Both the position numbers and the translations under genes were made by a program. Positions 1-57,141 of a stretch of 64,000 nucleotides of DNA are shown here, one piece after another. The stretch covers positions 152,379 through 216,378 of the forward strand of contig JAXHMH010000002.1 in assembly GCA_034521515.1 (NCBI GenBank), in the 5' to 3' direction. Each line of letters opens with the position of its first letter. Position 1 is the first letter of the stretch. The notes under the pieces are model-generated. The model had not been told where the DNA came from. It did not search any database and saw nothing but the letters and a program-made list of their open reading frames with translations. Source of the stretch: Candidatus Saccharimonadota bacterium. GTDB lineage: Bacteria > Patescibacteriota > Saccharimonadia > Saccharimonadales > JAXHMH01.

Positions 1-3000
1 CGTCCGGTTGTCGTGTCGTAGTACATTGAGCCGAGATACGTATCGTTACCGTCATCTACTGGTGGGGTTGATGATCGGTCAAGTGTAAACAGGGTGACTG
101 AACCACCGGTGATACCGCCACCAATTTGGACATGGGATGGGGTTGTGGTGCTATCATTGCGCTGGAAGCTGAGGTTATCAATCCAGAAAGTACGCGCTGT
201 GGCATCTGTCTGGCGGATGATGAGGTCTGGGTTGGTTGCTGTAGTGCCGTCGGTAGTAATCGTGCAGGTAACCTTGGTCCAATCAGATGTCACGATAGTT
301 TGTGTGCTGTACGTATCACAAGCAACTGTGTTGCTACCGCCATCTCGTGAATACAAGACTTCGAGTGTATTGAATGTGCCAGAGTCTAGCCGCGCCGTGA
401 ACGATACCTGGTATGTGGTATTGACCACTGGGTTGCCAGATAGGTTGTTGCGGACGCCATGGTTGGCACTAGCCCCGGTTGTAACCTCGACACCTGCCTG
501 GCCTGTGACGTATTCGTCTGTTGTGGTTGTACGGCTAATTGTGCCTCCAGCTGGTGCGGCGGTCCAGTTTGTACTGAATGTACCGGCGGTTTCTGCGCCA
601 CCGTTGGCGGCCAGCTCTATACCGTAGTTATTTACACTAAATAGGTTGGTGCCGATTGATGTCTGGACCTCGAGAACGCCGCCCTCAATTGGGTTATCTG
701 GGTTGTTCCTGATTGTCAGACCATCGGCGCTGCCACCGACTCCGTTAAGCACAAGCTCTGCGCCACCTGCGCTGGTGAGGGTGTTATCATAGGCAGCTTG
801 TAGGGTTGTTGAGCTTGATGCTCCGGCCGCCGTCCAGTCAGAACCGTTCCAAATCATGGTGGCGGTTGTATTAGCACGCATGCCGATCTCATCGCCCACA
901 CCACCGCCATTTACGATCAAAGTAAAGTCATTGGAGCCGTTAGCTGCAGTAACATACACGACACGTCCGGCGGTTGTATTAGTTGGGTCGGGCAAGTCAA
1001 CATCCAGACCAGAAGCCGTGGCATCTACAACCACTACTCCGGTGCCGTCAACATTGGCTTGGGTAATTGTACAGTTGCTTGCGCAGTTTTGTGTGGCCGA
1101 AGTAGTGAAGCTCGGTGTACTAATCACGACTAGACCTTTGGCTCCCGTGCCAACTCCATCACCGCCACTCAGCAAGATATCACCGCCATTGGCATTACCT
1201 GTACCGGCTGCGTTACCGCCCTGCAACACCAGGTCGCCGCCACCGAACGCACTACCACCCGATCCAGCCGCACCGGCACTAACTGTTAGGTCATTGCCTA
1301 TTGTATTTGTGGTACGAGTTTCAACACTGATAGCTCGACCAGACCCTTCAGCTAATACAATGTTGCCGCCTGTATATGTATTGCCGTTAACAGCAAGTTT
1401 GTAAGTACCCGGTGACGAATAACCGATTGCAACGTTGCCGCTTGTGTCTATCAAGAATCTTTGGGCAACGCCAGATTGTGTCAAAGAGAACCTGTCGCTT
1501 GAGTCATTTTCAATATGCCAGTTTGTTGAGCCTTCTCGCCCAAGCATGAGAAGCGCCGCTCCAGTTGCGTCTGAATCAAGTAACAGACCAGCGTTGCCAG
1601 AATCATTACGTATGTGAAGTCCGGTACCGCCAAATGGCTGAAGAGGACTAGAAGTGCCAATACCTAACCTGCCATCATCCCGTACAAATAGAAGTGGGTC
1701 ACCGTCAGAGTTATCAGCTCTAAGTGACTGTGTTGCTGATGTGTTACCCGAGCTTCTAACATAAAGCTGTGCATCCGTAACGTAACCACCGCCAATTGAT
1801 ACGTTGCCATTTTGCTCAATAACCATCCGTGTCGCAAGTGACGTCGTACCTGAAGCAGTTGTATAGAAACGGATTCTTGAACCTTGTGCAGTATCTGACC
1901 AAGCTTCCGTTGCCTGCAACACCATGGCAGCCCGCGTGCCCGAGAAGCCCGTACCGTCATAACCTCGTCCGCTAAACTGAGCAAACGTGTCGTTTGCTTG
2001 TAAGGCTGTCGGGCTACCGATCGTTCCACCTGCTCGTCGACCTTGTATAAGCGGAATACCCCCGTACGCATCGTTAGATATATAGTTAGACCCTTCGCCT
2101 ACAACATGTAGGCTAAACTCTGGACTATCCGTACCTATACCAATGCGGCTGTTGGTGGTGTCGGCAGTAAATAGATTAGATGTGCCGGCGCTATCCTGGA
2201 TCTGGAAAGCGGTGGTAGAGTCGGTGGTGTTTTGGAAGAGTTGATCGTTGCCGGTGAAGGTTTGGTTGTTGCGGTCAAGTAGCGCCACGTTGCTAGTGAG
2301 GCGGGCATCTGCCAGGGTGCCGGTAGTGATATTGGTAGCGTTGAGGTCGGTGAGGAGTGAGCCGTCGCCGCTGAAGGATCCAGCGACGATGGTGCCAGAG
2401 ATATTAATGTTGCCGGTTTGTTGTGTGCCTGGTGTTGCACCTTGCAGAGCAACACAGTCCGTACAGCTGTTAGCTTGAGTAGCATCAACCCAGGTTGGGA
2501 GAGCACTCGCACCATTAGACTGGAGGACTTGACCGGTTGTACCGGTACCGGCGTTCTGGAAGGCACCGGTACTGGTTGTGCCGCCAGTTAGTAAGCCGTA
2601 GGCGGTGGTGGTGGCGATACCGGTGCCACCACGTTCTACGGTAAGTGTACCGGCAGTGAAGAAATTACCGGCATCAGCGTGAGAGACGTTTTGGAGGACA
2701 CCGGTACTAGTAATGCGGGTAGTGCCGCCAGTCATTAGGCTGCCAGATGTATTAATGTCGCCGCCTTGGACGTCCAAACGTTCGCCTGGACTGTCCGTGC
2801 CTATACCAATCCGTTCATTAGTAGTATCAACATTGAAGATTGGCGTGCCGCCATCCTGGTCAAGAATTTGGAAGCCAGTGGTCGAATCAGTGGTGTTTTG
2901 GAAGAGAGCTGAACCGGTGCTCAAATCACCGCGCAGAACATTACCAATGTTAAGTTCGTTATTAACTCCAACTGCGGAGGCATCAAGATCGTAACCGATA

Positions 3001-4616
3001 ATTATATTGTTGCTTCCGGTAGTAATGTTGTCTCCGGCCTGGTAACCAAACAGTATGTTGTTACTGCCCGTTACCAAGTTGCCGGCATTGTACCCAACGG
3101 CCGTGTTGCCGCTGTTCACAGAAACAGACGCGAGCGCCCCAGAACCCAGCGTCGTATTCGCTGTCCCCGTCGAGACAGCGCCCAGAGCGCTCGCGCCTAT
3201 TCCTGTGTTATTTGCACCTGAAGCGGTCGACCCACCAGCTCCATTACCGAAGAACAAACTACTTGTTGTCGCGTTAATACGCGCCAGTTCTGACCCAGAA
3301 GAATCCTGGAGCAGAACAAGCGGATTACTCATCGACTGCGTGCTGTGAGCACGGACAAGCAGCTGAGTCTGATCGGCACCGCCGACCACACTCAGACGCG
3401 CGTCTATATTCGCTGTTGATCCAACCTGCACTCTATTGTTTACTGCATCAACAAATAATGTATCGGTGTCAAATGCAACATTGCCATTACTGGCAATTTC
3501 TACACGTGTAATACCATTGGTTATCAAGTTTAAGGGGTGTGTATCATTGCTACCAATGACCATATCGGTACCAAACGTGTTGCCACCCTGTAGTACATTG
3601 CCTGCGGTATTAAACGATATAGTCTGCGACCAGCTGCTACCGTTCCAAATGAACGAACTACTACTACCCACAGAAACGGGGTTGCCATACATAGTAAATT
3701 CTGCACTGCCAACGTTGTTAACATATATAATCCGCCCGGAAGTAGTGTCGGTAGGTGTTGGCAATGTTAACGATTGGCTGGCAGTTGTCTGATTTACGTT
3801 AAACGTAGTCGCGACGTCAACGGTTGTTGCAGCGGATCCAATATTACCACCTGTGGCCCGATCGCTAATTGATATAGCGGTCAATAAAGTACTCGATGCA
3901 TTAGTAAAGGTACCGCCGGCACTAACGGTTAATCCTCCGTCAAATGTCCCCGAACCCTCAACGGTGAGATTACCGGTCTTAGACAATGTAAGTACATTTG
4001 ATCCATCGCCCTGAAGTTGTAATAAATTACCCGCACCGGTTTGATTTATGCGTAGTGCGGTGTTAGCAGAGTTAACTGCCTGTATTAAGCTCGGCGCCAG
4101 TTGTGCAAATTCATCAGCTGTCCGACCTTCAAGCCTGCCAGAGTCGAATGCATAAGGTACGGCGGTTAGTTTGATGCGCGGCGTCATCTCGCCGTCGCTT
4201 TCGACGTTCATGGTCAGCCACTTTTCTTCGCTCCAATCAATCGAACTACCAAAGCTAGTGACCGAACCAAGATTGGTGCTGAAGTAACCGTTACGGACTG
4301 TGACGCTTTGAGTTTCATTCCATATAGAGGTGCCAGTAGTAGCATCTTCGTATAAGTTAAATGCTATAGAGTAGCTACCATCAGAAACGACGTTACCGGA
4401 GTTATTGTATAAACGAGCTTGAAAATTCAGGGTATCAGAAAGCGCCGCATCAACCGTACTGGTGGCGGGCATGACAAGAAGCCCTGTTCCGAGGAGTGGA
4501 AGCAAGAGCATAAACACAGCAATAAATACGCTAATAAAGCTTAGCGGTATATGCCGAATGATTGTACAGAAACGCGAAAAAGCGTACCTGCCGACGCTGG
4601 GAATTGTCTTTGGCAT
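1..4616 (-). CDS. Giant secreted fibre-like surface protein, paralogue A (C-terminal part lies beyond the left window edge; >1538 codons visible)
   Basis: Absent from the supplied ORF track because it has no in-window stop. Manual reverse-complement translation from ATG 4616-4614 stays open to position 1. It begins MPKTIPSVGRYAFSRFCTIIRHIPLSFISVFIAVFMLLLPLLGTGLLVMPATS (N-terminal TM/signal anchor). Next comes LNFQARLYNNSGNVVSDGSYSIAFNLY..VTVRNGYFSTNLGSVT..EMTPRIKLTAVPYA, the same module that opens the genes at 10638-19385 and 51881-54343. Fibre motifs recur (TTAFQIQDSAGTSNLFTADTTNSRIGIGT; GTLADARLTSNVAL). A CBM4/9-like beta-sandwich (..TTYQVSFTARLDSGTFNTLEVLYSRDGG..WTKVTCTITT..FWIDNLSFQ) lies at about 100-620. 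The listed minus ORFs 386-601, 1664-2071, 2135-2566 and 3530-3724 are in a different frame. Confidence 0.85.
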   Translation of the reverse strand, partial: MPKTIPSVGRYAFSRFCTIIRHIPLSFISVFIAVFMLLLPLLGTGLLVMPATSTVDAALSDTLNFQARLYNNSGNVVSDGSYSIAFNLYEDATTGTSIWNETQSVTVRNGYFSTNLGSVTSFGSSIDWSEEKWLTMNVESDGEMTPRIKLTAVPYAFDSGRLEGRTADEFAQLAPSLIQAVNSANTALRINQTGAGNLLQLQGDGSNVLTLSKTGNLTVEGSGTFDGGLTVSAGGTFTNASSTLLTAISISDRATGGNIGSAATTVDVATTFNVNQTTASQSLTLPTPTDTTSGRIIYVNNVGSAEFTMYGNPVSVGSSSSFIWNGSSWSQTISFNTAGNVLQGGNTFGTDMVIGSNDTHPLNLITNGITRVEIASNGNVAFDTDTLFVDAVNNRVQVGSTANIDARLSVVGGADQTQLLVRAHSTQSMSNPLVLLQDSSGSELARINATTSSLFFGNGAGGSTASGANNTGIGASALGAVSTGTANTTLGSGALASVSVNSGNTAVGYNAGNLVTGSNNILFGYQAGDNITTGSNNIIIGYDLDASAVGVNNELNIGNVLRGDLSTGSALFQNTTDSTTGFQILDQDGGTPIFNVDTTNERIGIGTDSPGERLDVQGGDINTSGSLMTGGTTRITSTGVLQNVSHADAGNFFTAGTLTVERGGTGIATTTAYGLLTGGTTSTGAFQNAGTGTTGQVLQSNGASALPTWVDATQANSCTDCVALQGATPGTQQTGNINISGTIVAGSFSGDGSLLTDLNATNITTGTLADARLTSNVALLDRNNQTFTGNDQLFQNTTDSTTAFQIQDSAGTSNLFTADTTNSRIGIGTDSPEFSLHVVGEGSNYISNDAYGGIPLIQGRRAGGTIGSPTALQANDTFAQFSGRGYDGTGFSGTRAAMVLQATEAWSDTAQGSRIRFYTTASGTTSLATRMVIEQNGNVSIGGGYVTDAQLYVRSSGNTSATQSLRADNSDGDPLLFVRDDGRLGIGTSSPLQPFGGTGLHIRNDSGNAGLLLDSDATGAALLMLGREGSTNWHIENDSSDRFSLTQSGVAQRFLIDTSGNVAIGYSSPGTYKLAVNGNTYTGGNIVLAEGSGRAISVETRTTNTIGNDLTVSAGAAGSGGSAFGGGDLVLQGGNAAGTGNANGGDILLSGGDGVGTGAKGLVVISTPSFTTSATQNCASNCTITQANVDGTGVVVVDATASGLDVDLPDPTNTTAGRVVYVTAANGSNDFTLIVNGGGVGDEIGMRANTTATMIWNGSDWTAAGASSSTTLQAAYDNTLTSAGGAELVLNGVGGSADGLTIRNNPDNPIEGGVLEVQTSIGTNLFSVNNYGIELAANGGAETAGTFSTNWTAAPAGGTISRTTTTDEYVTGQAGVEVTTGASANHGVRNNLSGNPVVNTTYQVSFTARLDSGTFNTLEVLYSRDGGSNTVACDTYSTQTIVTSDWTKVTCTITTDGTTATNPDLIIRQTDATARTFWIDNLSFQRNDSTTTPSHVQIGGGITGGSVTLFTLDRSSTPPVDDGNDTYLGSMYYDTTTG

Positions 4617-4665: not shown

Positions 4666-4977
4666 TGCCTTTACGACGAGGCATGTTTTGTTTTGAAAAT
4701 CATTTTTGTGTTCCAGCCCGGGTTACGAATCCGCGCTTTTTGGATCACGCCTTCAGTATCACCGAGCATCGGTATTGATACAACCCCTTTTCTATAAAAA
4801 ATTTGCTCATTTTTTAAGGCAATGTTTTGCAATATTTTGCAGCAATTTTTGTTGTGTTAATTATTACAGTTTTTTATACGGCCTGTGTTCTTAACACCTA
4901 CAACCTATTGTATTAACTATTACATCCAAAATAATACTGTTGTGTAAATCACAAATTTCTAAAATTTGCCCCAAAAG

Positions 4978-4986
4978 TTATCCACA
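4978..4986 (+). promoter_or_regulatory. TTATCCACA motif (perfect DnaA-box consensus 9-mer), copy 1, about 360 nt upstream of the gene A start
   Basis: aaaGTTATCCACAGcc read directly. It has the same orientation and a similar distal-upstream position as the copies at 19712-19720 and 54630-54638. Confidence 0.5.
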
Positions 4987-5066
4987 GCCATTTTTAAAAA
5001 TGTCTCAACCATTCTCGCATCTCTTACATTTTTTAAACAAAGTGCCCATAAAGCATTCGCTTGTCC

Positions 5067-10637: not shown

Positions 10638-13600
10638 TTAGTACCTCGCCCTGTACTGGAAGCTTATATCCCCTACCCGGGCATAATTACCGTCAGTTGC
10701 AGTTAATCGAACTCTAAATACCACGACATCTCCGGCGGCTATATTACAGTCTTTTTCGTTTGCATTTAGTGCTGTTAGCGTCCAACTTCCATCCGCTGTC
10801 GCCGCGTTAGTCGTCGAACCACACTGTGTGCCATCTGCACCGAACAATGCCAGCTCCACTGAATCATTAACGGTGCTGCGCCAACCATACATCTTAATCG
10901 TGTCGTTTGAGATAAACCCGTCAAAGTTGCTCGGCATCTGATGTCGCACATAAATATCATAGTCCTGTGCAGTGCCTTGATCCGTAGTCCAGCTGTAATA
11001 GCTATGTTCGTCATTTGCATCTGCGCATACACCCAGGTTGGTGCTCCGTAGCGCACTGCCAGAACAGAAGTCGCTGGTCATCGTGCCCAGGTTGCTAGAA
11101 CCATCTGCCGTAATAGTAACTCCTGGATATTCTGGTGTTAATGTTGCTCTACCCGTAACTCCCGATTTTACGCTGCGGCTCCCCAGGCCAGCCCGTGGGG
11201 TGTACTCGGTGGTATCGTCGGCTATGCCGTTGAAGCTGATCCAGCCGTAGTTCTCGCTCCAGGCGTAGCCGGTGTATTCACCGGTGTCTGGGTCGTGTGT
11301 AACACCACCATCGGTTGGATCAAAGTTAATCCAGCCAGTGGAGGTGTTCCAGGCAAAGCCGGATAGCTCGCCAGTAGCTGGGTTACGGTTGACACCGTAG
11401 TCTGTTTCATCAGTGTTTAGGTAGGTGTGTTCACCGCCTCCTGTGTAGGTGCCAAAGCTAATCCAGCCGGTGGTTTCGCCCCAGGCCATGCCCTCTAAGT
11501 GGTCTGGGTAGACCCGTACGTCATAGATGGTGCCAGGCTCTAGGTTAATCCAGCCGGTGGCAGCGCTCCAGACATAGTGGTGTTCGCCATCTGAGGTTGG
11601 AGATACATCAAGTTCACCGCCAGTGAACTTCGGTGCATGAATAGTAGTGGTGCTTTGTAATTCTTGTTTGTCCTCATCATAACTAATCACACTTTGGTCA
11701 CCCGACCCAATACTTATACTACCCGACACGGTTATGTTTCCAGTAAAATTGCTGTGACCAGCAACCTTTAGTGCATCACCGTGCACAACCTCTTTAACAG
11801 CAACTCTATCATCGCCATCTTTAGCTACAGCTACAAATTTATTATTACCGTAAGTGATAGACTTCCATTCATTCCACGCCAAATCATCAACGTATTCGTA
11901 AGACCAGTTTATACCATCTAGGCTTGTAACAAAATTTGCATCCCAACGCGATACAGCAACAAACTTGCCTCCCCCGTAAGTGATAGACGAGAAGTCCATC
12001 ATGTAAGAAAATATAGCCTGTGACTGCTCCCAGTTAACCCCGTCACTAGAGACCAGTGCGTAAGGATGGTTGTACCCGCTTCTAAGTGCCACAAAGACAC
12101 CGTTACCATATGTTATTTTGTTAACTAAAGGGAGATCCGATGGAGTATTGTCTGTCCAACTCACTCCGTCTGTGGATACCATAATGCCATTATAAGCCAC
12201 CGCTACGAAGCGGCCGTTACCGTAGCTGACGGATCCCCAGGAGTTTTGTTCGGCAGCTGTTTGGGCGGTCCAGGTTTCGCCGTCAGGACTGGTCATAACG
12301 CGGTTGGTGCCATCACTGGAAACTGCCACAAACTGGTTATTACCATAGGTGACGGATCCCCAGGAGTTTTGTTCGGCAGCTGTTTGGGCGGTCCAGGTTT
12401 CGCCGTCAGGACTGGTCATGACGCGGTTGGTGCCGTTATCTGCAACTGCTACAAATGTGCCGTTTCCGTAGGTAACGGACTGCCAACCATTAGCTTCAGC
12501 GGCGGCGTGGGCGGTCCAAGTTTCGCCGTCAGGACTGGTCATGACGCGGTTGGTGCCGTTATCTGCAACTGCTACAAATGTGCCGTTTCCGTAGGTAACG
12601 GATTCCCAGTAGTTCTGTTCGGCGGCGGTATGCAGCGTCCAGTTGGTTTTGTCCACAGGTACTCCCTGAACCAACAACTTAGAGTTAGACGTATTGATAC
12701 CTCCTACACCAACATTCATTGCCGATGTGTCGGCACTTAACAAAGGAACGTTACTGGCATCTTGCACGATTAGCGCATTTTTTGAGGTAGCAGCAATAGT
12801 GTTACTTCCCTTAAATCTATTGTTGCCATTAAACTCACTACTGCCCTGTATATGCAGCGCCTTACCTTCAGCACTGCTGACCATAGTTTTACCCTTAGAA
12901 GATACTGCCACAAATGTGCCGTTACCGTAGGTGACGGACTGCCAAAAGTGTAGTTCAGGCGGGGCGTGGGCGGTCCAAGTTTCGCCATCTGGGCTGGTCA
13001 TAACGCGGTTGGTGCCGTCATAAGAAACCGCCACAAATTGGTTGTTGCCATATGTAACAGATTGCCAGGAGTTCTGTTCGGCAGCTGTTTGGGCGGTCCA
13101 AGTTTTGCCATCTGGGCTGGTCATAACGCGGTTGGTGCCGTTGGCTGCTACGGCTACGAATTGGTTGTTGGCGTAGGTGACGGAACGCCAACTGTTAGCT
13201 TCGGCAGCTGTTTGGGCGGTCCAAGTTTCGCCATCTGGGCTGGTCATAACGCGGTTGGTGCCGTTGGCTGCTACGGCTACGAATTGGTTGTTGGCGTAGG
13301 TGACGGAACGCCAACTGTTAGCTTCGGCAGCTGTTTGGGCGGTCCAAGTTTCGCCATCTAGGCTGGTCATAACGCGGTTGGTGCCGTCATAAGAAACCGC
13401 CACAAATTGGTTGTTGCCATATGTAACAGATTGCCAGGAGTTCTGTTCGGCAGCTGTTTGGGCGGTCCAAGTTTCGCCATCTGGCGATGTCATGACGCGG
13501 TTGGTGCCGCTGTTGGCAACTGCCACAAACTGGTCATTACCGTAGGTGACGGAACGCCAAAAGTTCTGTTCAGCGGCGGCGTGGGCGGTCCAAGTTTCGC

Positions 13601-16600
13601 CATCTGGGCTGGTCATAACGCGGTTGGTGCCGTCACTGGAAACTGCCACGTAGATGCCGTTTCCGTAGGTGACGGAATTCCAGAAATTTACTTCTGTGGA
13701 AGCGTGAGTAGTCCAGGTTTCACCACCTGATCCATATGTAAAGCCCGTTGCATCTACGTTTAGCCGTACTGAGGAGTTCCTACCACCAATGCCGACACTA
13801 CCTTTACCTTCTCCATACGAATTGACAAGTACATCCAGTTGGTGAAGTAACGGTGTAACAGATGTATCAGACGTGGATAAATTGGCTCGTACCTGTAGTT
13901 GACCGTCGGAGAGGTCAATACCATTTGTAATACCGGGTAATGAGCCGCCGCTGGTGAGGCTTTGCCAGCCACTGCCCCAGCTAACACCACCGTCAACCGA
14001 TACACGTGCCTCTAGCTCGAGCGTCGTATTAGCAGGTACAGTATCGACCCAGGTAACAGTGGAGCCACTAGCAATATCTACACCAGATAAGTCATAGGTC
14101 TCGGAAGTCCAACTACCAGTGCTCTCATATATTGGCTGGTTGGTATTGACCACCACAGCATCCAGCGCCATATCACTATCAAAACTGCTACCGGTCACGC
14201 CCTTAAACCGAATTTTTGTTGTACCCGCCGGAAAACTGACGTTAGCACTGTTCCAAACATCTGTACCTTGGTCTCCGATCACACTCCACTGCTCGCTCCA
14301 ACTGACACCATTATAACTTTCCAGCGACAATTCCATTGTCGTGTTGTCGTACATATTATAATTAAAATCAACGCTACCCCCGCCATGACTATCCATAGTG
14401 TACTCGATTAGAGCGGTTTGGGTCGGATAGTTGGAACCTGACGATTCAGTGTAGATGTACCAACTTCCATCGTAAGCTGCTGTCGGTCCAGTACCGGAAC
14501 TACCGGTGCCACCGCTATTACGGCTCCAGTCGAAATCATCGCCTGAAACATTAGTCCAGTTACCAAAGCCAGACTCAAAGCTTTCGCTATCCTCAATAGC
14601 TGGTGCTCCATAGGAGTTTACCGCCAGATTGACGCTACCGCCTACTGCATCCGTATTGGTTAGCGTACCTGTTTCCCACTCTGGCTGAGTAGTTTCAGTA
14701 ACATTAAAGTTGGAACTAGCGTTAACAGTTAAGTTGTTATTAAACAAGGATAGTTCTTGATCAACCGTGTCCTGGTTGAACAAATTAACACCTGAGGCGT
14801 TTTGGATTTGGAAGGCGGTTGGGGAGTTAGTGGTGTTTTGGATATTAACACCACCAGAGCTAGACCCTAGTACCAAGTTATTTTCTGTAGTGTCATAACT
14901 AATGACACCTTCGTTGCCTGCCGTACCTATATGTAGCGAGCCGGGACCAACAAACAGGTCTTGCCAGCGGGCAGTACTAGAGCCAAGACTGTAGGTGTTG
15001 TCAGTGCCGGGGAGTAGGTTGCCGTGTAGCACAGTGTCGCCCTGGGCGTTAACGGTTAGAGCATCGACAGTTGTGGTCGAGGTGTCCGTAGCCACAATAT
15101 TTGTGACTGTGGAAGTTGGGGAGTTGGCGGTGGATGCTGGGGAGCTGGTGCTGGAGGTTGGGGAGTTGGCGGTGGATGCTGGGGAGCTGGTGCTGGAGGT
15201 TGGGGAGTTGGCGGTGGAGGTTGGACTAGTGCATTCGCTTGTGCAGCCAGTAATATTGCCGGCTGCGTCGTATTTAGCCAAATAGGCATCAGCGGTACCG
15301 GCTCCATAACTATTGGTATATCCACCAGCTATGTAGCCGTCGTCATCAGTTTTAGCAACACTATAGAACCGGTCATTGGCGGTACCGCCAGCGGTACGGG
15401 ACCACTCTATACTGCCGCTATCGTCGTATTTAATAAGGTAGCCACTTTGGTTACCGGCACCGAAGCTATCGGTGTATCCAGCTGCCAGATAACTGCCGTC
15501 ATCGGCTTGAACGACGGAGTAGAGTGCATCAAAACCGGTGTCGCCGGCAGTGCGGGACCATTCTATGGTGCCGCTGCTGTCGTATTTGACTAGGTAAGCG
15601 TCATTACCACCAGCACCGAAGCTGTCAGTTCTTCCGGCTGCCAGGTAGCCGCCGTCGCTGGTTTGGATGACCTCAAGGAATCGGTCATTGCCGGTATCGC
15701 CGGCAGTGCGGGACCATTCTATGGTGCCGCTGCTGTCGTATTTGACTAGGTAGGCGTCATCGGCGCCGGCGCCGAAGCTCTCGGTTTCACCTGCTGCCAG
15801 GTAACCGCCATCATCAGTCTGAATAACGCTGAAGAATTGATCGTGCTGGGTGTCGCCAGCGGTACGTGACCACTCGATAGTACCGCTGCTGTCGTATTTG
15901 ACTAGGTAGGCGTTGTAGTTACTGGCGCCAAAGCTGATTGTGCTGCCGGCTGCCAGGTAGCCGCCGTCAGTAGTTTGTATAGCACTATAGAAGTAGTCCA
16001 AGCCTGTACCACCAGCGGTACGTGACCACTCGATAGCGCCGCTGTCATCGTATTTAATAATATAGGCGTCATTACTACCGGCACCAAAACTATCGGTTGA
16101 GCCTACAGCCAGGTAGCCGCCGTCGCTGGCTTGGATAACATGTTCAAAATAGTCTACTCCGGTATCACCAGCAGTACGGGACCACTCGATGCTACCGCTA
16201 TCGTCATATTTGACCATATAGCCGTCCAAACCGCCGGCACCGAAGCTATCAGTTCTTCCGGCTGCCAGGTAGCCGCCGTCGCTGGTTTGGATCACGCTGT
16301 GGAAACGATCATCTGTGGTATCGCCAGTAGCGAGCATAAAGGTTGTGGTCGCCACGGTTTGGTTGATACGTAAGGCATTTTGGTTTTGGTCGGTGTTTAT
16401 GATGGTAAGTTTGTCGGTTGGGGTGTTGGTGCCAATACCGATGCGTTGGTTGGTCGTATCGGCGGTGAGGATACTGGTGCCGGCGGCGTTTTGGATCTGG
16501 AAGGCGGTGGTGGAGTTGGAGGTGTTTTGGAATAGGGCTTGGCCGGTATTAGACAGGCTTAAGACTGTTTGGTTGTTGGCGAGGAGTTCTACGCCGTAAT

Positions 16601-19385
16601 TGTCCTGGGCGCCTATGACTACATTTGCACCGAATGTGTCACCACCTTGACTGATGTTGCCACTGGTATCTGTCACACAATCTAGCCAGGCACCGTTTTC
16701 GTAGCAACGGAAGGTGTTGGACGTGGTGTCGTAGTACATAGCACCGTTGACGCCGGTTGGGGAAGAAGAGTCAGAGCCAAGCACAAGGGCAGTGCCAGAA
16801 CCAAGAGATATGCGGTTATTAGTAGTGTTAGCGGTCAAGAGATTGGTAGTACCTGCGGCGTTTTGGATTTGGAAGGCAGTTGTAGAGTCTGTTTGGTTCT
16901 GGAATAGAGCCTGGCCTGTGACATCTAAGCCGGCATCTATAGTAACGGATGAGCCTGATTGGCTTATCATTGAATCTATTATGGTGTTGTTGTCATCAAA
17001 CACTGGGATAGTGCCGGCCGTGCCTGCATCTTCCACCCAAGAAATATGGATACTGCCATCACCTTCATTGCCTACCGAAGCCGTACCTCCAGCTGGCATA
17101 AGCGATGAGCCACCACCGCCAGCACCACCGCCACCGCAGCACGTTCCCGTACCCCCACCGGCGCCGCCGCCGTAATAGCCGCCGCCGCCGCCGCCGCCAG
17201 AATAGTAGTGATTAACAGCGTCACCACCCTGACCAAGGCTACCCGAACCGCCATCACCGCCACCGGCACCTCCGGCAGACTGCGTGCCGCCGCTACCACC
17301 AGGTTCACCACCTGCAGTTTGGCCATCATAACCATTGATGTCACCGCCATCACCGCCCAGTTTAGTACCATACGAACCACGACCGCCACCACCGCCAGCG
17401 ACCACCACACGATCTGTTAGGTCAGTCCCTCCTCGTCGTATGTCTGATGCGCCACCACCGCCACCACCGGCAGAAAGAGCACCACCAGCTGAACTACCAC
17501 CACCGTTCCAACCACCGTCTTTTACATCCGAACTACCCCCTTGTTCTCCAACATACATGTAGATTGTTTCCCCGGGAGTGACCTCGATAGTGCTAGTGAT
17601 AATTGCACCTGTACCACCGTTACTTGTAGCACCAGCAGCTCCCCTAACGTCCACGAACAATTCTGTTATACCCGCTGGTACGACAAACGGCTGTCCGTAT
17701 TTTTCGTGCTCAAAGGTTTGACTACCAGCCTCTCCCGGAGTTAATACAAATGTACCTGTCGTGTTGGGGAGTAAGTAGGCTTGATCCGCAGTCAATGTAG
17801 CCGATTGTATGGTCGCGCCGTAATTACTATAGCTACCGTCACCCAGCGTCAACAGGCCTTGCGTAACTGTGCCGCTGCTGGCGATCCTGCCTAGTGTCAA
17901 CCGTGCACCTGTTTCATTAAACGACGCGTTGACATTACCGTTGCTATCTTGCAGTTGTAATAAATCGGCGGTTTGTCCTGATGTGCCCTGAACAAGCAAA
18001 CCAGTATTGGCGCTTCCGCCTGTGGCAAGCGCGGTCTGAGCCGAGCTGTCAGCAGTGGAAAGCGTGTTTACACTGAGCGTGTTTGCCGGAGCAACGTTAT
18101 TTATGCCTACCTGCCCGGTGTTTGAGACGGTCATACGGATGGTGTCGTTTGTCTTGAAATTAACGTCACCGTCATTAACGGTACCGAGTACCATGGCAAC
18201 GCTGCCGCCAAGATCATTGCCACCTTGCAATATATCGCCGTAGCCTGCGGTACCCCCGATACAGTTGCCGGCAAACGTACAGACATTGTCACCGCTTTGC
18301 TGCAAGGTGCCGGTAAAGTTGGCCGTGGTGGCGTCATACAGTGCCACGTTCGAGCTTAGTCTGGCATCGGCCAGGGTGCCGGTGGTGATGTTGTCGGCGT
18401 TGAGGTTAGTAAGGAGTGAGCCGTCGCCGCTGAAGCTACCGGCGATGATGGTGCCGGTAAGGTTGATGTGGCCGGTTTGGGCGGTACCAGGAGTGGTACT
18501 TTGTAGCTCCACAAAGTCACCACCGCTGCCTCCCCCGTCATTAGCACAGAGTAAGACTCCAGAACTGTTGGTGGTTAGCTTACCGCCATTGTCGTAGGTG
18601 GAGCAGTCGAAGTCTTGCAGGGTGATGGAAGTGCCGTTAATAAGCAGGGTGTCGGCGGCGTCGTTGCCGAGGATGGTGTTACCGTTGACGGTTAGGTTGC
18701 CGCCTACAGTGGTGTTGTTGGTGACGTTCAGAGCCGTACCACTCGCACTGAGGGTGAGTTGGCCGGTGAAGGTTTGGTCACCTTGCAGTAAGGCTATGGT
18801 ACCACTGGCATCAGGTAGCAGGATTGATGGGTCGTTGGTGATGGAGCTGAAGTTGAGGGTGCCGCGGTTGGTGCCGTCGTCTTGGTTGAGTTGGCCGGCA
18901 CTGAGGGCGTGGGGTATGGCGGTTAGTTTGATTCTGGGAGTCATCTCACCATCCCAGGTGGGAGAGCCAGTACCGCCAATGTTCATACTGAGCCACAGGT
19001 CTTGATCCCAGTTGATATCTGGCAGGCTGGTGACGGAACCCAGGTTGACGCTGAAGTAGCCGTTGCGGACGGTGACTTGGTCAGTGCTGGTGCGGGTTTC
19101 GCGCCAAGCACAGCTGCCGGAACAGCTGCCTTGGGCGCCACCAGTGTTGGTGGCATGGTCGTGTAGTTTGAATTCTAGGTTGTAGGTACCGTCAGGCACT
19201 ATGTTGCCGGTACTGTTGTACAGACGGGCTTGGAAGTTGAGGTATTCACTGGTGGCGGCAGAGGTGGATTGCAGGGGTGGAATTAGGATAGACCAAACAA
19301 ACAAAAACAGCACAAACAATAGCCCTGATAGCCAGAGCTTGGCTGTGTTGAAAGGTAGGCGGTGTGACCGCTGTTTTTGGAACAT
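10638..19385 (-). CDS. Giant multidomain surface protein, paralogue C (about 2915 aa from the proposed start; the ORF extends to 19532)
   Basis: The start is placed at ATG 19385 (MFQKQRSHRLPF..) because the paralogues start at the equivalent point after the same CA-rich leader. Domain map, N to C, approximate nt: TM anchor LWLSGLLFVLFLFVWSILIPPL; shared N-terminal module (19.25-18.85 kb); fibre repeats; Gly-rich domain GAAG..GGWNGGG..GGGGGGASDIRRGGT..RVVVAGGGGG (17.70-17.04 kb); 7 x 52-aa SBBP-like blades (16.33-15.24 kb); Ser/Thr/Pro linker; MAM domain FESGFGNW..DDFDWSRNSGGTGSSGTGP..DMALDAVVV (14.60-14.14 kb); 7+7 blades W.SVTYGNG.FVAV..GTNRVMTSPDGETW (13.73-11.80 kb); four GW repeats (11.59-11.23 kb); C-terminal beta-sandwich. 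Confidence 0.9.
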   Translation of the reverse strand: MFQKQRSHRLPFNTAKLWLSGLLFVLFLFVWSILIPPLQSTSAATSEYLNFQARLYNSTGNIVPDGTYNLEFKLHDHATNTGGAQGSCSGSCAWRETRTSTDQVTVRNGYFSVNLGSVTSLPDINWDQDLWLSMNIGGTGSPTWDGEMTPRIKLTAIPHALSAGQLNQDDGTNRGTLNFSSITNDPSILLPDASGTIALLQGDQTFTGQLTLSASGTALNVTNNTTVGGNLTVNGNTILGNDAADTLLINGTSITLQDFDCSTYDNGGKLTTNSSGVLLCANDGGGSGGDFVELQSTTPGTAQTGHINLTGTIIAGSFSGDGSLLTNLNADNITTGTLADARLSSNVALYDATTANFTGTLQQSGDNVCTFAGNCIGGTAGYGDILQGGNDLGGSVAMVLGTVNDGDVNFKTNDTIRMTVSNTGQVGINNVAPANTLSVNTLSTADSSAQTALATGGSANTGLLVQGTSGQTADLLQLQDSNGNVNASFNETGARLTLGRIASSGTVTQGLLTLGDGSYSNYGATIQSATLTADQAYLLPNTTGTFVLTPGEAGSQTFEHEKYGQPFVVPAGITELFVDVRGAAGATSNGGTGAIITSTIEVTPGETIYMYVGEQGGSSDVKDGGWNGGGSSAGGALSAGGGGGGASDIRRGGTDLTDRVVVAGGGGGRGSYGTKLGGDGGDINGYDGQTAGGEPGGSGGTQSAGGAGGGDGGSGSLGQGGDAVNHYYSGGGGGGGYYGGGAGGGTGTCCGGGGAGGGGSSLMPAGGTASVGNEGDGSIHISWVEDAGTAGTIPVFDDNNTIIDSMISQSGSSVTIDAGLDVTGQALFQNQTDSTTAFQIQNAAGTTNLLTANTTNNRISLGSGTALVLGSDSSSPTGVNGAMYYDTTSNTFRCYENGAWLDCVTDTSGNISQGGDTFGANVVIGAQDNYGVELLANNQTVLSLSNTGQALFQNTSNSTTAFQIQNAAGTSILTADTTNQRIGIGTNTPTDKLTIINTDQNQNALRINQTVATTTFMLATGDTTDDRFHSVIQTSDGGYLAAGRTDSFGAGGLDGYMVKYDDSGSIEWSRTAGDTGVDYFEHVIQASDGGYLAVGSTDSFGAGSNDAYIIKYDDSGAIEWSRTAGGTGLDYFYSAIQTTDGGYLAAGSTISFGASNYNAYLVKYDSSGTIEWSRTAGDTQHDQFFSVIQTDDGGYLAAGETESFGAGADDAYLVKYDSSGTIEWSRTAGDTGNDRFLEVIQTSDGGYLAAGRTDSFGAGGNDAYLVKYDSSGTIEWSRTAGDTGFDALYSVVQADDGSYLAAGYTDSFGAGNQSGYLIKYDDSGSIEWSRTAGGTANDRFYSVAKTDDDGYIAGGYTNSYGAGTADAYLAKYDAAGNITGCTSECTSPTSTANSPTSSTSSPASTANSPTSSTSSPASTANSPTSTVTNIVATDTSTTTVDALTVNAQGDTVLHGNLLPGTDNTYSLGSSTARWQDLFVGPGSLHIGTAGNEGVISYDTTENNLVLGSSSGGVNIQNTTNSPTAFQIQNASGVNLFNQDTVDQELSLFNNNLTVNASSNFNVTETTQPEWETGTLTNTDAVGGSVNLAVNSYGAPAIEDSESFESGFGNWTNVSGDDFDWSRNSGGTGSSGTGPTAAYDGSWYIYTESSGSNYPTQTALIEYTMDSHGGGSVDFNYNMYDNTTMELSLESYNGVSWSEQWSVIGDQGTDVWNSANVSFPAGTTKIRFKGVTGSSFDSDMALDAVVVNTNQPIYESTGSWTSETYDLSGVDIASGSTVTWVDTVPANTTLELEARVSVDGGVSWGSGWQSLTSGGSLPGITNGIDLSDGQLQVRANLSTSDTSVTPLLHQLDVLVNSYGEGKGSVGIGGRNSSVRLNVDATGFTYGSGGETWTTHASTEVNFWNSVTYGNGIYVAVSSDGTNRVMTSPDGETWTAHAAAEQNFWRSVTYGNDQFVAVANSGTNRVMTSPDGETWTAQTAAEQNSWQSVTYGNNQFVAVSYDGTNRVMTSLDGETWTAQTAAEANSWRSVTYANNQFVAVAANGTNRVMTSPDGETWTAQTAAEANSWRSVTYANNQFVAVAANGTNRVMTSPDGKTWTAQTAAEQNSWQSVTYGNNQFVAVSYDGTNRVMTSPDGETWTAHAPPELHFWQSVTYGNGTFVAVSSKGKTMVSSAEGKALHIQGSSEFNGNNRFKGSNTIAATSKNALIVQDASNVPLLSADTSAMNVGVGGINTSNSKLLVQGVPVDKTNWTLHTAAEQNYWESVTYGNGTFVAVADNGTNRVMTSPDGETWTAHAAAEANGWQSVTYGNGTFVAVADNGTNRVMTSPDGETWTAQTAAEQNSWGSVTYGNNQFVAVSSDGTNRVMTSPDGETWTAQTAAEQNSWGSVSYGNGRFVAVAYNGIMVSTDGVSWTDNTPSDLPLVNKITYGNGVFVALRSGYNHPYALVSSDGVNWEQSQAIFSYMMDFSSITYGGGKFVAVSRWDANFVTSLDGINWSYEYVDDLAWNEWKSITYGNNKFVAVAKDGDDRVAVKEVVHGDALKVAGHSNFTGNITVSGSISIGSGDQSVISYDEDKQELQSTTTIHAPKFTGGELDVSPTSDGEHHYVWSAATGWINLEPGTIYDVRVYPDHLEGMAWGETTGWISFGTYTGGGEHTYLNTDETDYGVNRNPATGELSGFAWNTSTGWINFDPTDGGVTHDPDTGEYTGYAWSENYGWISFNGIADDTTEYTPRAGLGSRSVKSGVTGRATLTPEYPGVTITADGSSNLGTMTSDFCSGSALRSTNLGVCADANDEHSYYSWTTDQGTAQDYDIYVRHQMPSNFDGFISNDTIKMYGWRSTVNDSVELALFGADGTQCGSTTNAATADGSWTLTALNANEKDCNIAAGDVVVFRVRLTATDGNYARVGDISFQYRARY
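11225..11590 (-). repeat. Coding GW repeats (4 units: YVWSAATGWINL, GMAWGETTGWISF, GFAWNTSTGWINF, GYAWSENYGWISF)
   Basis: Read from the ORF translation. An almost identical block occurs in the decayed paralogue at about 50475-50895. Confidence 0.7.
11800..13735 (-). repeat. Two arrays of seven 41-aa (123-bp) Asp-box-like blades (W.SVTYGNG.FVAV...GTNRVMTSPDGETWTA..AAE.N.), separated by a fibre segment at about 12.65-12.88 kb
   Basis: Seven units counted in each array from the translation. The adjacent units 13119-13241 and 13242-13364 are identical apart from one base seen by eye (ctgggct vs ctaggct). Confidence 0.8.
15111..15224 (-). repeat. 42-bp tandem repeat (about 2.7 copies) encoding the Ser/Thr/Pro linker ..STANSPTSSTSSPA..
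   Basis: On the plus strand, ggaRgttggggagttggcggtggatgctggggagctggtgct is repeated head to tail (units at 15111, 15153 and a partial one at 15195). Confidence 0.85.
15240..16335 (-). repeat. Seven 52-aa (156-bp) SBBP-like beta-propeller repeats (D.F..VIQT.DGGYLAAG.TDSFGAG..DAYLVKYD.SG.IEWSRTAG.TG.)
   Basis: Seven units counted in the translation. The motif resembles the Pfam SBBP (seven-bladed beta-propeller) repeat, recalled from memory. Confidence 0.7.
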
Positions 19386-19711
19386 TTGTTTTTGTTTTGT
19401 TTTTGATCTACACGTTTTTTGTATTTTTGTTTTGGTAGATCTAGGGTTTAGTATGGCGGAATCTGGGTTGTATGACAAGAGGTATTCAAGGGAAAGCAAA
19501 GTCAGGTCTACGACAGCCGACAGACAGTGCAAATATACTGGTTCTTTGTGACATTATAGTTGTGATTTTTACATCCTTAGTTTCCAGATAACGGGGTTAA
19601 ACTGCAGGTTTAAATTAGTGTAGTAGCAAATATAAGATGACATGATATGGATGGGGTCGGTAGCACGCAAACAATGCACTAGCGCCCAAAATTGAACACA
19701 TAATGTATAAG

Positions 19712-19720
19712 TTATCCACA
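19712..19720 (+). promoter_or_regulatory. TTATCCACA motif, copy 2, about 330 nt upstream of ATG 19385 and just downstream of the rplU terminator
   Basis: taaGTTATCCACAGga. On the minus strand it sits between TTGATT and TATACA (TTGATTtttccTGTGGATAActTATACA, 16-nt spacing), a possible promoter. Confidence 0.5.
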
Positions 19721-19735
19721 GGAAAAATCAACAAT

Positions 19736-50170: not shown

Positions 50171-53100
50171 CCATACGTAAAGCTTGTTGCATCTACGTTT
50201 AATCGTGCTATCGGATTATTGCTGCCAATCCCAACACTCATATTCTGAGTATCGGCAGTAAACAGGCTGGAACCAGAAGTATTTTGAATCTGGAAAGCTT
50301 CTGTGGTATCAGTGCCGTTCTGAATCACTACACCGCCGGTTGTACTCCCTAATACAAGGTTGTTGGTCTGGTTATCAAAGTGCATGGTGCCGTAGTTAGT
50401 GCTGTCTGTGCCTACCTTGATGGTGGATGAGGCTTCGAGGACACCGGTCTTAACACTGCGGCTACCCAGGCCAGCTCGTGGGGTGTACTCAGTCGTGTCA
50501 TCGGCTATGCCGTTAAAGCTGACCCAGCCGTAGTTCTCGCTCCAGGCGTAGCCGGTGTATTCACCGGTGTCTGGGTCGTGAGTGACACCACCGTCGGTTG
50601 GGTCCAGGTTAATCCAACCAGTAGCGGTGTTCCAGGCAAAGCCGGATAGTTCACCGGTGGTTGGGTTACGGTTGACACCGTAGTCTGTTTCATCTGTGTT
50701 GGCGTAGGTGTGCTCACCGCCTCCTGTGTATGTACCAAAGCTAATCCAGCCGGTGGTTTCGCCCCAGGCCATGCCTTCTAGGTGGTCTGGGTAGACGCGG
50801 ACGTCATACATCGTGCCAGGCTCTAGGTTAATCCAGCCAGTTGCAGCACTCCAGACGTAGTGATGTTCGCCGTCTGAGGTTGGGGAGACGTCTACTTCCC
50901 CACCAGTGAACTTTGGTGCGTGAACGGTTGTGGTGACTCTGCACCTCTTCTTTGGTGGTGTCGTAGCCGAGGGTAGGCGTCGTTGCCATGACTGTGCCAA
51001 TGTTGCATGGAGTTTGGCACGGACGTAGACGTCTTGCCGACGGTTGGTGCTCGGAGCCAAGGTCGTAGGTGTCATCCGCGCTTGGTCGTAGGATTAGAGT
51101 TAATACCGGCGTTTACTGTCAGTGTGTTAGATGAGTTGGTGCCAAGTACCGTATTACCGTCTACGTCTACGTTGGTAGTAAAGCTGCCTCCGGCCGGTTA
51201 CATCAAGATCACCGCCGGCTAGAATAAGATCGTTGCTGGTGTCTAGGGTAAGTGTGCCGGTGCCTTGGAGGAGTGTGGAGTCAACCACGTTCTGAGCAGC
51301 GTCGAACATAGCTAGACGGTTGGCGGTGCCAAGAGCCGGTGACTAGGCTACCACCGTCACTCGAAGTCACCCGTAGTTATTTGTGTGCCGTTAACCCGGT
51401 AGACGCCGGTTGTGTTTACATCTCCGTCGACATCCAGGGTGTATTGTGGGCTGATGACTGGAGCCATGGTCGACTCTGAGGTGTGGGCGTTGGTGGTGCC
51501 GACTCGCATCGTAGACTGTGGGGCGTGCTGGTGCCGAACTGGTGGTGTACCAGGGGAGTACCAGCGTGAGGCGCCGTCAACTGGTGGTACCGGGCCGACT
51601 TAGCTGCATTGGTGGGGAGATGGAGCCGTTTGAGCGTCGTTGGAGCCGGATCGTTATAGCGGACAGCTGACTGCTGGTGCCATGATGGTAGCAGTCGGCA
51701 GCATCAGCCATCAGGCGAGCCTGCACGCCTGCGGCGTTTTGGATTTGGAAGGCGGTGGTGGAGTTGGAGGGTGTCGAGTAGGGCTTCGCCGGTATTCAAC
51801 GGCTTAAGACTGTATGGTCTGTGGCGAGGAGTTCTAGCCGTAATTGTCCTGGGCGCTGTGACTCGTTTGCACCGAATGTGTCACCACCTTGACTGATGTT
51901 GCCACTGGTATCTGTGACACAATCTAGCCAGGCACCGTTTTCGTAGCAACGGAAGGTGTTGGACGTGGTATCGTAGTACGTGGCGCCGTTGACGCCGGTT
52001 GGGAGAAGAGTCAGAACCAAGCACAAGGGCAGTGCCAAACAATCGATATACGATTATTAGTGGTGTTAGCGGTAAGAGATTGGTAGTACCTGCGGCGTTT
52101 TGGATTTGGAAGGCAGTTGTAGAGTCTGTTTGGTTCTGGAATAGAGCTTGGCCGGCGACATCTAAGCCAGCATCTATAGCAACGGTTGAACCTGATTGGC
52201 TTATCAATGAGTCTATAACGGTGTTGTTATCATCAAACACTGGGATAGTGCCGGCAGTACCTGTGCCTACTGCCCAAGAAACATGAATACTGCCATCGCC
52301 CTCATTTCCTACCTCCACACCCATACCGGCGGGTACAAGCGATGACCCGCCGCCACCGCCGCCGCCACTATAAGTGCTTCCACCAGAGTCACCGGCACCG
52401 CCACCGTAATAACCGCCGCCACCGCCGCCACCGGCTGTATAACTAGTACATGTTGGGCAAGCATCGCCACCTACACCAAGTACACCATCTTCGCCATCGC
52501 CGTTGCCGGCACCACCTTCAGTTTGCGTACCTCCCTCGCCAGGATAACCACCATTCTGGCCAGCTTGTCCATTATGGTCACCGCCATGTCCGCCGTATTT
52601 ATTACCGTACCAGCCACTACCGCCGCCGCCGCCACCAGCAACCACGATACGATCGGTTAAGCCCGTACCTCCGCGACGTATATCGGTTGCACCACCACCG
52701 CCACCGCCAGTACGAAAATCGCTGTAACTATCTCCTCCACCGTTCCAGCCACCTGTAGGCGTACCTCCCGCGCCTCCTACGTAAAAATACAACGTCTCTC
52801 CTGGCGTAACATCCATGGTGCCAGATACAATTGCACCATCGCCGCCTCCAGTACCACTTTCAGCTGATACACCCCCTTCAGCACCTCGTAATTCAACAAA
52901 AATCTCGGTAACGCCAGCTGGTACGGTAAACTGTTGCATAGCCGACACGGACTCAAAAGTTTGACTACCAGCCTCTCCCGGAGTTAATACAAACGTACCT
53001 GTCGTATTGGGTAGTAAGTATGCCTGATCTGCAGTCAATGTAGCCGATTGTATGGTCGCACCGTTATTACTGAACCCGTCACCCAGCGTCAACAGGCCTT

Positions 53101-54629
53101 GCGTAACTGTGCCACTACTAGCAATTCTACCTAGTGTCAACCGTGCACCTGTTTCATTAAACGACGCGTTGACATTGCCGTCGCTATCTTGCAGCTGTAA
53201 TAAATCGGCGGTTTGTCCTGATGTGCCCTGCACAAGCAGGCCAGTATTGGTGCTTCCGCCTGTGGCAAGCGCGGTCTGAGCCGAGCTGTCAGCAGTGGAA
53301 AGCGTGTTTACACTGAGCGTGTTTGCCGGAGCAACGTTATTTATGCCTACCTGCCCGGTGTTTGAGACGGTCATACGGATGGTGTCGTTCGTCTTGATAT
53401 TCACATCACCGTCATTAACGGTACCGAGTACCATGGCAACGCTGCCGCCAAGATCATTGCCCCCTTGCAATATATCGCCGTAGCCTGCGGTGCCCCCTAT
53501 ACAATTGCCGGCAAACGTACAGACATTGTCACCGCTTTGCTGCAAGGTGCCGGTAAAGTTGGCCGTGGTGGCGTCATACAGTGCCACGTTCGAGCTTAGT
53601 CTGGCATCGGCCAGGGTGCCGGTGGTGATGTTTGTCGCGTGAAGGTCGGTCAGGCCGGAGCCGTCGCCCTCAAAGCTGCCGGCAATGATGGTGCCGGTGA
53701 GGTTGATGTGGCCGGTTTGGGGAGTGCCTGGAGTGGAGGCTTGTAGTAAAGCAAGCGTCCCACTGGCATCAGGTAGCAGAATTGATGGGTCGTTGGTGAT
53801 GGAGCTGAAGTTGAGGCTGCCGCGGTTGGTGCCGTCGTCTTGGTTGAGCTGGCCGGCACTTAGGGCGTGGGGTATGGCGGTTAGTTTGATTCTGGGGGTC
53901 ATCTCACCATCCCAGGTGGGAGAGCCAGTACCGCCGATGTTCATACTGAGCCATAGGTCTTGGTCCCAGTTGATGTCTGGCAGGCTGGTGACGGAACCCA
54001 GGTTGACGCTGAAGTAGCCGTTTCTAACCGTGACTTGGTCAGTGCTGGTGCGGGTTTCGCGCCAGGCACAGCTGCCGGAACAGCTGCCTTGGGCGCCACC
54101 AGTGTTGGTGGCATGATCGTGTAGTTTGAATTCTAGGTTGTAGGTGCCGTCAGGGACTATGTTGCCGGCACTGTTGTACAGACGGGCTTGGAAGTTGAGG
54201 TATTCACTAGTGGCGGCAGAGGTGGATTGCAGGGGTGGAATTAGGATTGACCAAACAAACAAAAACAGCACAAACAATAGCCCTGAGAGCCAGAGCTTGG
54301 CTGTGTTGAAAGGTAGGCGGTGTGACCGCTGTTTTTGGAACATTTGTTTTTGTTTTTTGGTTTGTTTTGGTTTTTTGTTTAAAAACCGTGACTTCATTAT
54401 CCTTCACTTAACAGATAGTATCAAGGGTGAATGTACACATAATTAACTCAATTATAAATCAATTATTTTTATCAAATTAATATAATTATATGTTGTTATT
54501 AGTACTACTACATCGACCTTTCTTACCTGTTTTTGTATAAAATATACTGTACGTATAATTGTTTTTATATATAAAATATTGATGTATTTATAACTACTAC
54601 ACTATAATTTCATAGAATTATTGTAATGG

Positions 54630-57133: not shown

Positions 57134-57141
57134 ACGTTCTG

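Follow-up and report, generated by a model that had tools for sequence, protein, structure and literature searches.

A conserved DnaA-type box upstream of giant, putative adhesin genes in Saccharimonadia

Giant genes and a conserved upstream box

The stretch of DNA analyzed here (the window; 64,000 nucleotides (nt) of contig JAXHMH010000002.1 from a Candidatus Saccharimonadota bacterium) carries on its minus strand three genes, called A, C and D, whose products share an N-terminal domain, and upstream of each of them lies the same 9-mer, which is the subject of this report. Gene A (1..4616, ATG at 4616) runs off the window start, for which reason it is absent from the list of open reading frames, and encodes more than 1538 amino acids (aa), including a CBM_4_9 domain; gene C (10638..19385) encodes 2915 aa with EPTP and MAM domains, and gene D (51881..54343) encodes 820 aa with an ALK/LTK glycine-rich domain. 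Over about 230 aa the N-terminal domain is 99% identical between C and D, and that of A is 45% identical to that of C. Gene B (5067-10634, minus strand), which directly follows C and is probably in the same operon, has Kelch repeats and lacks both the shared N-terminus and the box. The general layout of the giant proteins is a transmembrane or signal segment and the shared N-terminal domain, followed by varied binding modules (CBM_4_9, MAM, EPTP, glycine-rich; Kelch in B). They are probably adhesin fibres for host contact, which is a reasonable but unproven assignment from their sequences.

The 9-mer, TTATCCACA, occurs three times in the window, always on the plus strand (4978-4986, 19712-19720 and 54630-54638), and a search of both strands found no fourth copy in the 64 kb. 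Dinucleotide shuffles gave an expectation of 0.42 copies, and one shuffle in 100 reached three. A first-pass annotation, made from the window alone, had described these copies as lying in one orientation, each 5′ of a giant-gene paralogue, and our exact search agrees. Its estimate of 290-360 nt between box and start codon is right for C (335 nt) and D (295 nt), while in A the box is slightly further away, at 370 nt. Read in gene orientation on the minus strand, box A (4977..4987, core 4978-4986) and box C (19711..19721, core 19712-19720) are both cTGTGGATAAc and box D (54629..54639, core 54630-54638) is tTGTGGATAAc. All three boxes have in common the 10-mer GTTATCCACA, starting at 4977, 19711 and 54629; the only 10-mer common to the upstream regions of A, C and D is TGTGGATAAC, with no other non-trivial word, and a Markov simulation put the chance of any common 10-mer among the three at 0.0066. 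Apart from it, these regions have in common only a CA-rich tract before the ATG. Even C and D, the DNA of which is 95.6% identical from 13 nt before the ATG onward, are unalignable further upstream.

All three boxes are positioned right behind the end of the preceding transcription unit. Box A directly follows the stop codon of gene B, box C the terminator hairpin of rplU (about 19740-19764), and box D lies some 50 nt past a long hairpin (54688-54732) that is itself 3′ of the 5S rRNA gene. About 200 bp of AT-rich DNA adjoins every box in the window.

Related loci were fetched by means of the N-terminal domain, 76 from one-genome-per-species assemblies and 46 from metagenomes, giving 122, and the 119 with usable upstream DNA were searched from -700 to -100, with the rest of the 1.28 Mb fetched as background. 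It should be noted that these loci come from metagenome-assembled genomes, that their start codons and promoters are predictions, and that the two collections contain duplicates (L004/L085, L008/L088, L080/L081). The 9-mer is not a common word scattered at random: strict TTATCCACA gave 43 upstream matches against 0.81 expected (P~1e-57, about 50-fold enriched) and the relaxed pattern TTWTNCACA gave 66 against 4.4, with enrichment seen separately in the genome and the metagenome collections. Elsewhere in the 1.28 Mb the strict 9-mer was near chance, with 15 matches, at least one of which is 409 nt 5′ of a further giant gene (2296 aa). The box is present in 51 of the 64 loci closest to the window genes and in 9 of the 55 distant ones, which belong to Omnitrophota, other classes of the candidate phyla radiation (CPR) and DPANN archaea. 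The DNA around it is unalignable between loci, c-TGTGGATAA-cT alone being conserved, and this, together with the enrichment, rules out chance or shared ancestry as the cause. Many Saccharimonadia genomes keep the element 5′ of their giant genes, orthologues and paralogues alike, and it is real and specific to one gene family, a narrow target set. Neither collection contained a close relative of the source genome suitable for footprinting, the best N-terminal identity being 64%.

The first-pass annotation had also equated the 9-mer with the DnaA-box consensus, and this identification holds up at the level of single bases. The published consensus is TTATnCACA (PMC5742627, PMC4447404), and the related loci follow it. 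The E. coli oriC boxes R1 and R4, which we read directly, are both CTGTGGATAAC, the same 11-mer as boxes A and C, and are classed as perfect, highest-affinity boxes (PMC5742627). Measured against TTATNCACA, the three window sites are perfect, as are 42 of the 65 unique upstream instances in related loci. The cores of these 65 comprise TGTGGATAA (42), TGTGGAAAA (12), TGTG[C/T]ATAA (8) and double variants (3), and the one-mismatch variants found upstream are almost exclusively TTATGCACA, TTATACACA and TTTTCCACA. In an unbiased search, 11 of 15 one-mismatch variants fell on the four substitutions, out of 27 possible, that TT(A/T)TNCACA allows (P=6e-7). Tolerated variation is hence mainly confined to position 3 (A or T) and position 5 (any base), as for DnaA. 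The flanks are biased as well: of the 65 instances, 41 have C at -1, 38 have it at +1 and 50 have T at +2, and C is likewise the base on either side of R1 and R4.

The box is found forward in 47 instances and reversed in 18, which indicates that it acts on DNA and not in RNA. It is an asymmetric, monomer-type site, no dyad partner being conserved among the 47 instances of what we call class 1, the arrangement found in the window. A reading as a CRP/FNR-type site (TGTGA-N6-TCACA, TGTGGATAACTTTACA) was rejected because no right half-site is conserved in class 1 and because the would-be centre, ATAA, is largely fixed, with three bases invariant and the fourth only A or T.

Promoters, palindromes and leaders

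Downstream of the box lies a conserved promoter, cTTGnnn-17-(G/C)ATAAT or CATACT, the -10 element of which is 34-370 nt from the ATG. In the window, the predicted promoters, all on the minus strand and each with a putative transcription start site (TSS), are TTGTAT-17-GATACT for A (4755..4783), TTGTCA-17-CATACT for C (19450..19478) and TTGATA-17-GATAAT for D (54396..54424), the last of which overlaps a spurious ATG at 54397 (the true start is at 54343). The distance from box to -35 has a median of 205 bp and falls into clusters of 197-204, 209-214 and 221-228 bp.

The giant-gene promoters of the window and of 34 related loci carry an unusual signature in that the first base of the -10 element is G or C and not T. 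CTGTT is frequent in their spacer, 3-4 nt past the -35, and a TTGTGTWCA-like element lies 6-8 nt 5′ of the -35. The rplU promoter in the same window is ordinary (TTGACA-17-TAGACT). An alternative sigma factor, or some additional factor, may underlie the signature.

An alignment of 37 modules revealed two degenerate palindromes, E1 and E2, between box and promoter, with the consensus cGTtGT-N7-ACAAC. On the minus strand of the window, E1 of A (TTTGTGATTTACACAAC, 4939..4955) has its ACAAC half starting at box+43, and E1 of D (54581..54597) has ACATC at box+53. The ACAAC half of E2 starts at box+131 in A (4851..4867), at box+142 in D (54492..54508) and at box+157 in C (GATGTAAAAATCACAAC, 19559..19575), that is, 72 nt before the -35 in A and D and 85 nt before it in C. 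Among the related loci the spacing is similarly stepped. The box is mainly 42-43 bp, or else 53-54 bp, from the ACAAC half of E1, and E1 and E2 are 82-92 bp apart; E2 lies 70-73 bp before the -35 in 19 of 29 loci and 82-85 bp before it in 5, with one locus each at 62 and 93 bp.

The arms of E1 and E2 show no compensatory changes, the five core pairs scoring no better than column shuffles (p = 0.6-1.0), so that these elements look like protein sites, and an interpretation as RNA hairpins or terminators is ruled out by this absence of covariation. In five loci a GC-rich hairpin with a T-run, probably the rplU terminator, occupies the E1 position, with the box between the rplU stop codon and the hairpin. 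No Rfam family reached its gathering score in the three upstream regions of the window. Two further candidates for the palindromes were discarded. Scored as weak DnaA boxes, they reach only 5-8 of 9 in a small number of loci, and the one weak signal, at +37 in 5 of 47 instances, does not make this a general feature; as an exact genome-wide operator, GTTGT-N7-ACAAC has two copies in 1.4 Mb. With two mismatches allowed, this pattern gives 52 matches in the window against 36 expected and is too common to inform.

A second class of loci, absent from the window and represented in other genomes by a tandem paralogue, has the box inverted (aagTTATNCACAgga) and 19 nt 5′ of TTTACA-18-TACAAT, so that it is centred near -60. 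Class 1 and class 2 have in common the box, the CTGTT spacer motif and a CA-rich leader, which supports a common regulator for the whole gene family.

The leaders have features of their own. In the window and in most class-1 and class-2 loci they lack a Shine–Dalgarno sequence, are CA-rich (AAAACAAA, CCAAAAC) and open with a short stem-loop, the stem of which differs by locus (GAUCU/AGAUC or GGUUU/AAACC); these shared features suggest a shared signal for translation or stability. All on the minus strand, the predicted leader of C (19386..19443) has a 5′ stem-loop (UAGAUCUAC...GUGUAGAUC) followed by a CA-rich tract and a fold z-score of -5.3, that of D (54344..54389) has a GGUUUUU/AAAAACC stem and then a CA-rich tract, and that of A spans 4617-4748. 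Directly past the -10 of C (19436-19441) and of class-2 promoters (L016, L025, L027, L028, L032) stands AGATCT, with a second AGATC about 30 nt beyond. AGATCT, which has been reported from E. coli as a 6-mer site specific for ATP-DnaA, contains GATC and may here be just the leader stem.

A candidate control region and its alternatives

We propose that the 9-mer is a functional and deeply conserved protein-binding site, a single asymmetric high-affinity DnaA-type box, (c)CTGTGGATAACT(t), and that it marks the distal end of a multi-part control region for giant surface genes, probably encoding adhesin fibres, in the Saccharimonadia. The class-1 region would run from the end or terminator of the upstream gene through the box, E1 (at +42/43 or +53/54), E2 (usually 71-72 bp, in a minority 82-85 bp, ahead of the -35) and a specialised sigma70-type promoter (TTG-17-(G/C)ATAAT) to a CA-rich leader with a 5′ stem-loop but no Shine–Dalgarno sequence, and the ATG. 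The spacing steps of about 11 bp suggest that defined helix faces are probably required for the bound proteins, and we envisage the box-bound protein, one or more factors at the E sites and RNA polymerase on such faces within a looped or wrapped nucleoprotein complex. Positive or architectural control would be favoured over repression, because the inverted class-2 box near -60 is at a typical activator position and the class-1 box resembles an upstream activating site. The binding protein is most likely the replication initiator DnaA, acting here as a transcription factor, a role established for it outside the origin (PMC4447404, PMC11317965). Our probability for this reading as a whole, namely that a single high-affinity DnaA-type operator anchors a helically phased control region of putative adhesin-fibre genes with DnaA as the likeliest binder, is roughly 0.55.

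Should DnaA indeed be the binder, expression of the fibre-gene set would be tied to its occupancy and hence to the growth and replication state of the cell. This leads us to speculate, more tentatively and with the odds somewhat against it, that DnaA is the master regulator of host-attachment fibre genes, each gene having one permanently occupied, high-affinity box that anchors an enhancer-like complex, helically phased, with a putative factor at the E palindromes and so couples adhesin display to replication and growth. To our knowledge, such a logic has not been described for DnaA or for any member of the CPR.

Several points weigh against our proposal. DnaA-regulated promoters usually carry their boxes at or near the promoter, and the ~240 bp that separate box and start site here are unusual. 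Locus C has the longest distance from box to -35 in the set, 242 bp, and its E1 is unclear, the candidate being an ambiguous ACTAC at box+96. The helix-face constraint, drawn from the ~11-bp steps and from a Rayleigh test on box-to-promoter distances (peak period 10-10.5 bp, R=0.45), is suggestive rather than proven, as the loci are related and the periodicity statistic overstates their independence. E1 and E2 are degenerate and their binder is putative, and the promoters and TSSs are predicted from conservation only. As regards DnaA itself, the oriC boxes compared are those of E. coli. No adjacent second DnaA box is apparent, consensus matches not being raised at offsets of +/-11 to 13, whereas the DnaA of E. 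coli favours paired boxes with 2-3 bp between them in vivo and bound only 13 of 32 perfect single boxes (PMC11317965).

This last observation also speaks for a different binder, since the box is single, unlike the pairs bound in vivo in E. coli (PMC11317965). The operator would then be real and serve a dedicated regulator with a coinciding specificity, perhaps together with a factor at E1 and E2, DnaA being irrelevant or a bystander. The very narrow target set of giant genes and the other conserved elements of the region (E1/E2, CTGTT in the spacer and the TTGTGTWCA-like element) would fit such a protein. However, R1 and R4 of E. coli have the very same 11-mer, the substitutions accepted in the box match those that DnaA tolerates, any canonical DnaA present could be expected to bind there, and ordinary dimeric regulators do not usually have asymmetric, monomer-type sites; on balance we consider a dedicated regulator unlikely, though worth keeping in mind. 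Less probable still is that the DnaA-bound box acts as a roadblock or insulator against read-through from strong neighbours such as rplU, the rRNA genes or an upstream giant gene, a function that could coexist with the model proposed above. Schaefer and Messer reportedly described in 1988 a DnaA box that blocks asnC transcripts in E. coli (cited in PMC11317965), which would serve as the model. Consistent with a roadblock, at least 12 loci have the box just 7-27 nt past the stop codon of a preceding gene on the same strand, which is often rplU, the box precedes the hairpin and T-run of the upstream gene in L077, L078, L080, L082 and L094, and the three window boxes directly follow the rplU terminator, the hairpin beyond the 5S gene and the stop of B. 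Yet the distance from box to upstream gene varies from 7 to >1000 nt while that from box to promoter is fixed and quantised, the class-2 box is inverted and directly beside the promoter, and ordinary intrinsic terminators are also there.

The first-pass annotation had placed the box, as a shared operator or promoter element, in a 16-nt promoter spacer, and the giant genes would then be driven by a distal promoter with a leader of 290-360 nt. The hexamers that it described do exist in C (TTGATT-16-TATACA) and D (TTGTTG-16-TACAAT); moreover, TACA recurs 3-8 nt past the box in some loci, and class 2 keeps CTTTACA. Against this, no -35 or -10 stands at a fixed distance from the box in the 47 class-1 instances, A is without the hexamers, TATACA lacks the invariant final T, and the strongly conserved promoter is a different one, found further downstream at about 200-214 bp from the box, or at 242 bp in the case of C (200-240 bp in round terms). 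We regard this placement as very improbable. The other part of that annotation, which took the copies for a shared regulatory element and not an origin, is borne out by single boxes at separate loci. A role in replication control, as a secondary origin or as datA/DARS-like sites for titration or reactivation of DnaA, with the giant genes nearby only by coincidence, could draw on the perfect, high-affinity type of the boxes and on the roughly 200 bp of AT-rich DNA adjoining each; we find it the hardest of all to credit. Each box stands alone, groups of three or more within 400 bp being absent from all 1.4 Mb, and three copies fall within 64 kb. No dnaA gene was found in the window or the 122 loci, and likewise no dnaN nearby, the Saccharimonadia oriC lying outside the loci covered; the neighbours are rplU, rRNA genes and a giant gene. 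Finally, the box is strictly phased to the promoter and always paired with one gene family.

A DnaA-anchored control region of the kind we favour has partial counterparts. The box shares its sequence with R1 and R4 of oriC, but is single, outside any origin and tied to surface-protein promoters, without neighbouring low-affinity boxes, a DNA-unwinding element or a dnaA gene. Non-oriC boxes 5′ of genes are also known from DnaA-box regions of B. subtilis and from the compact DnaA regulon of E. coli (PMC4447404, PMC2533591, PMC11317965). The genes known to be targeted by DnaA are those for replication, nucleotides and the cell cycle, and their boxes, often imperfect, come in clusters or pairs at the promoter, whereas here one perfect box per giant putative adhesin gene stands ~240 bp upstream with helical phasing, or near -60. 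The Caulobacter DnaA regulon includes podJ and gcrA. The spacing recalls the araO2–araI pair of E. coli, which loops DNA over about 210 bp in a phase-dependent manner: in both, an operator is 200-214 bp from promoter-proximal elements and the spacing steps are ~10.5-11 bp. The proteins are different ones, however, the loop is here an analogy from sequence spacing, and the intermediate E1 and E2 at fixed positions suggest a multi-protein assembly and not a simple two-site loop. The box reported from the end of asnC is alike in being single and right behind an upstream gene, and differs in that the boxes described here are phased to a downstream promoter and also occur inverted beside it.

Full-text searches of the literature turned up no account of DnaA boxes, promoters or regulation for genes of this kind in Saccharibacteria or Patescibacteria. 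Saccharibacteria and other ultra-small episymbionts encode very few transcription factors, and we are aware of almost nothing about their gene regulation. DnaA as a transcription factor was known already; what would be new is that each gene has just one perfect box, placed in phase ~240 bp from the transcription start or at -60, and such control over a giant surface-protein family in a minimal episymbiont. The module is a cis-regulatory one with an architecture at the base-pair level, kept across deeply diverged lineages on genes for likely host-contact proteins. If DnaA binds it, the universal replication initiator would double as a lifestyle regulator in a minimal genome and link the cell cycle to host attachment; if another protein does, the module would be a handle for finding a new regulator. 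Whichever protein it is, the prediction lends itself to direct testing, and transformation of Saccharibacteria and the use of reporters in them are now feasible (PMC10633639). The conserved promoter and leader could in addition serve as expression parts.

Surroundings of the giant genes

The shared N-terminal domain belongs to no Pfam or NCBIfam family, apart from a weak match of the A N-terminus (window 3867-4616) to NF053851, Bdello_MAT_N (E=1.7e-7), which at 31 bits is below the curated cut-off of 60; gene C gave no Bdello_MAT_N match. The mosaic adhesive trimer (MAT) fibres of Bdellovibrio (PMC10769870) resemble the giant proteins in having a conserved N-terminus and varied C-terminal binding domains and in belonging to an organism that lives on other bacteria, but the match of A is sub-threshold and C has none. 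All close relatives of the domain are in Saccharimonadia assemblies. We know of no report of DnaA-box control for MAT genes. The domain also stands at the head of large proteins in other CPR classes, Omnitrophota and DPANN archaea (L040-L076), and it may serve widely as a module that anchors fibres on small cells dependent on a host.

The neighbours of the giant genes are housekeeping genes. Directly 5′ of C lie ileS and rplU, and beyond them nrdJ, nrdR, ftsZ, ftsA, map, adk, priA, def, fmt, infB and rpsA. The succession of ileS, rplU, box and giant gene (window 19794-23063) is kept in many Saccharimonadia genomes (L006, L010, L017, L018, L033, L077, L080, L082, L086, L092, L093), and where it is, the rplU stop codon often comes just 7-27 nt before the box.

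Gene D is followed by a row of same-strand open reading frames (44039-51075) with EPTP, LVIVD and MAM domains, which align to the middle and 3′ parts of C, suggesting that D is a copy of a C-like giant gene that has broken up or is decaying. Within this region (window 43302-54343), the 5′ end of the gene looks as though it was recently homogenised with C (95.6% nucleotide identity). A gene for an IS200-type Y1 transposase is located at 43302-43919.

Directly 5′ of D lie rRNA genes, on the minus strand within 57065-60531 and 62521-64000, leaving a gap of about 2 kb between 16S and 23S. In this gap, tRNA-Ala(tgc) and tRNA-Ile(gat) (61292-61533) are on the plus strand and thus antisense to the rRNA genes, an uncommon arrangement in an rrn locus. 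The 23S rRNA match (57065-60531) is 3467 nt long compared with a model of 2925 nt, which implies that about 540 nt are inserted, perhaps as an intron or intervening sequence, and an open reading frame (57686-58222, plus strand) lies inside the match.

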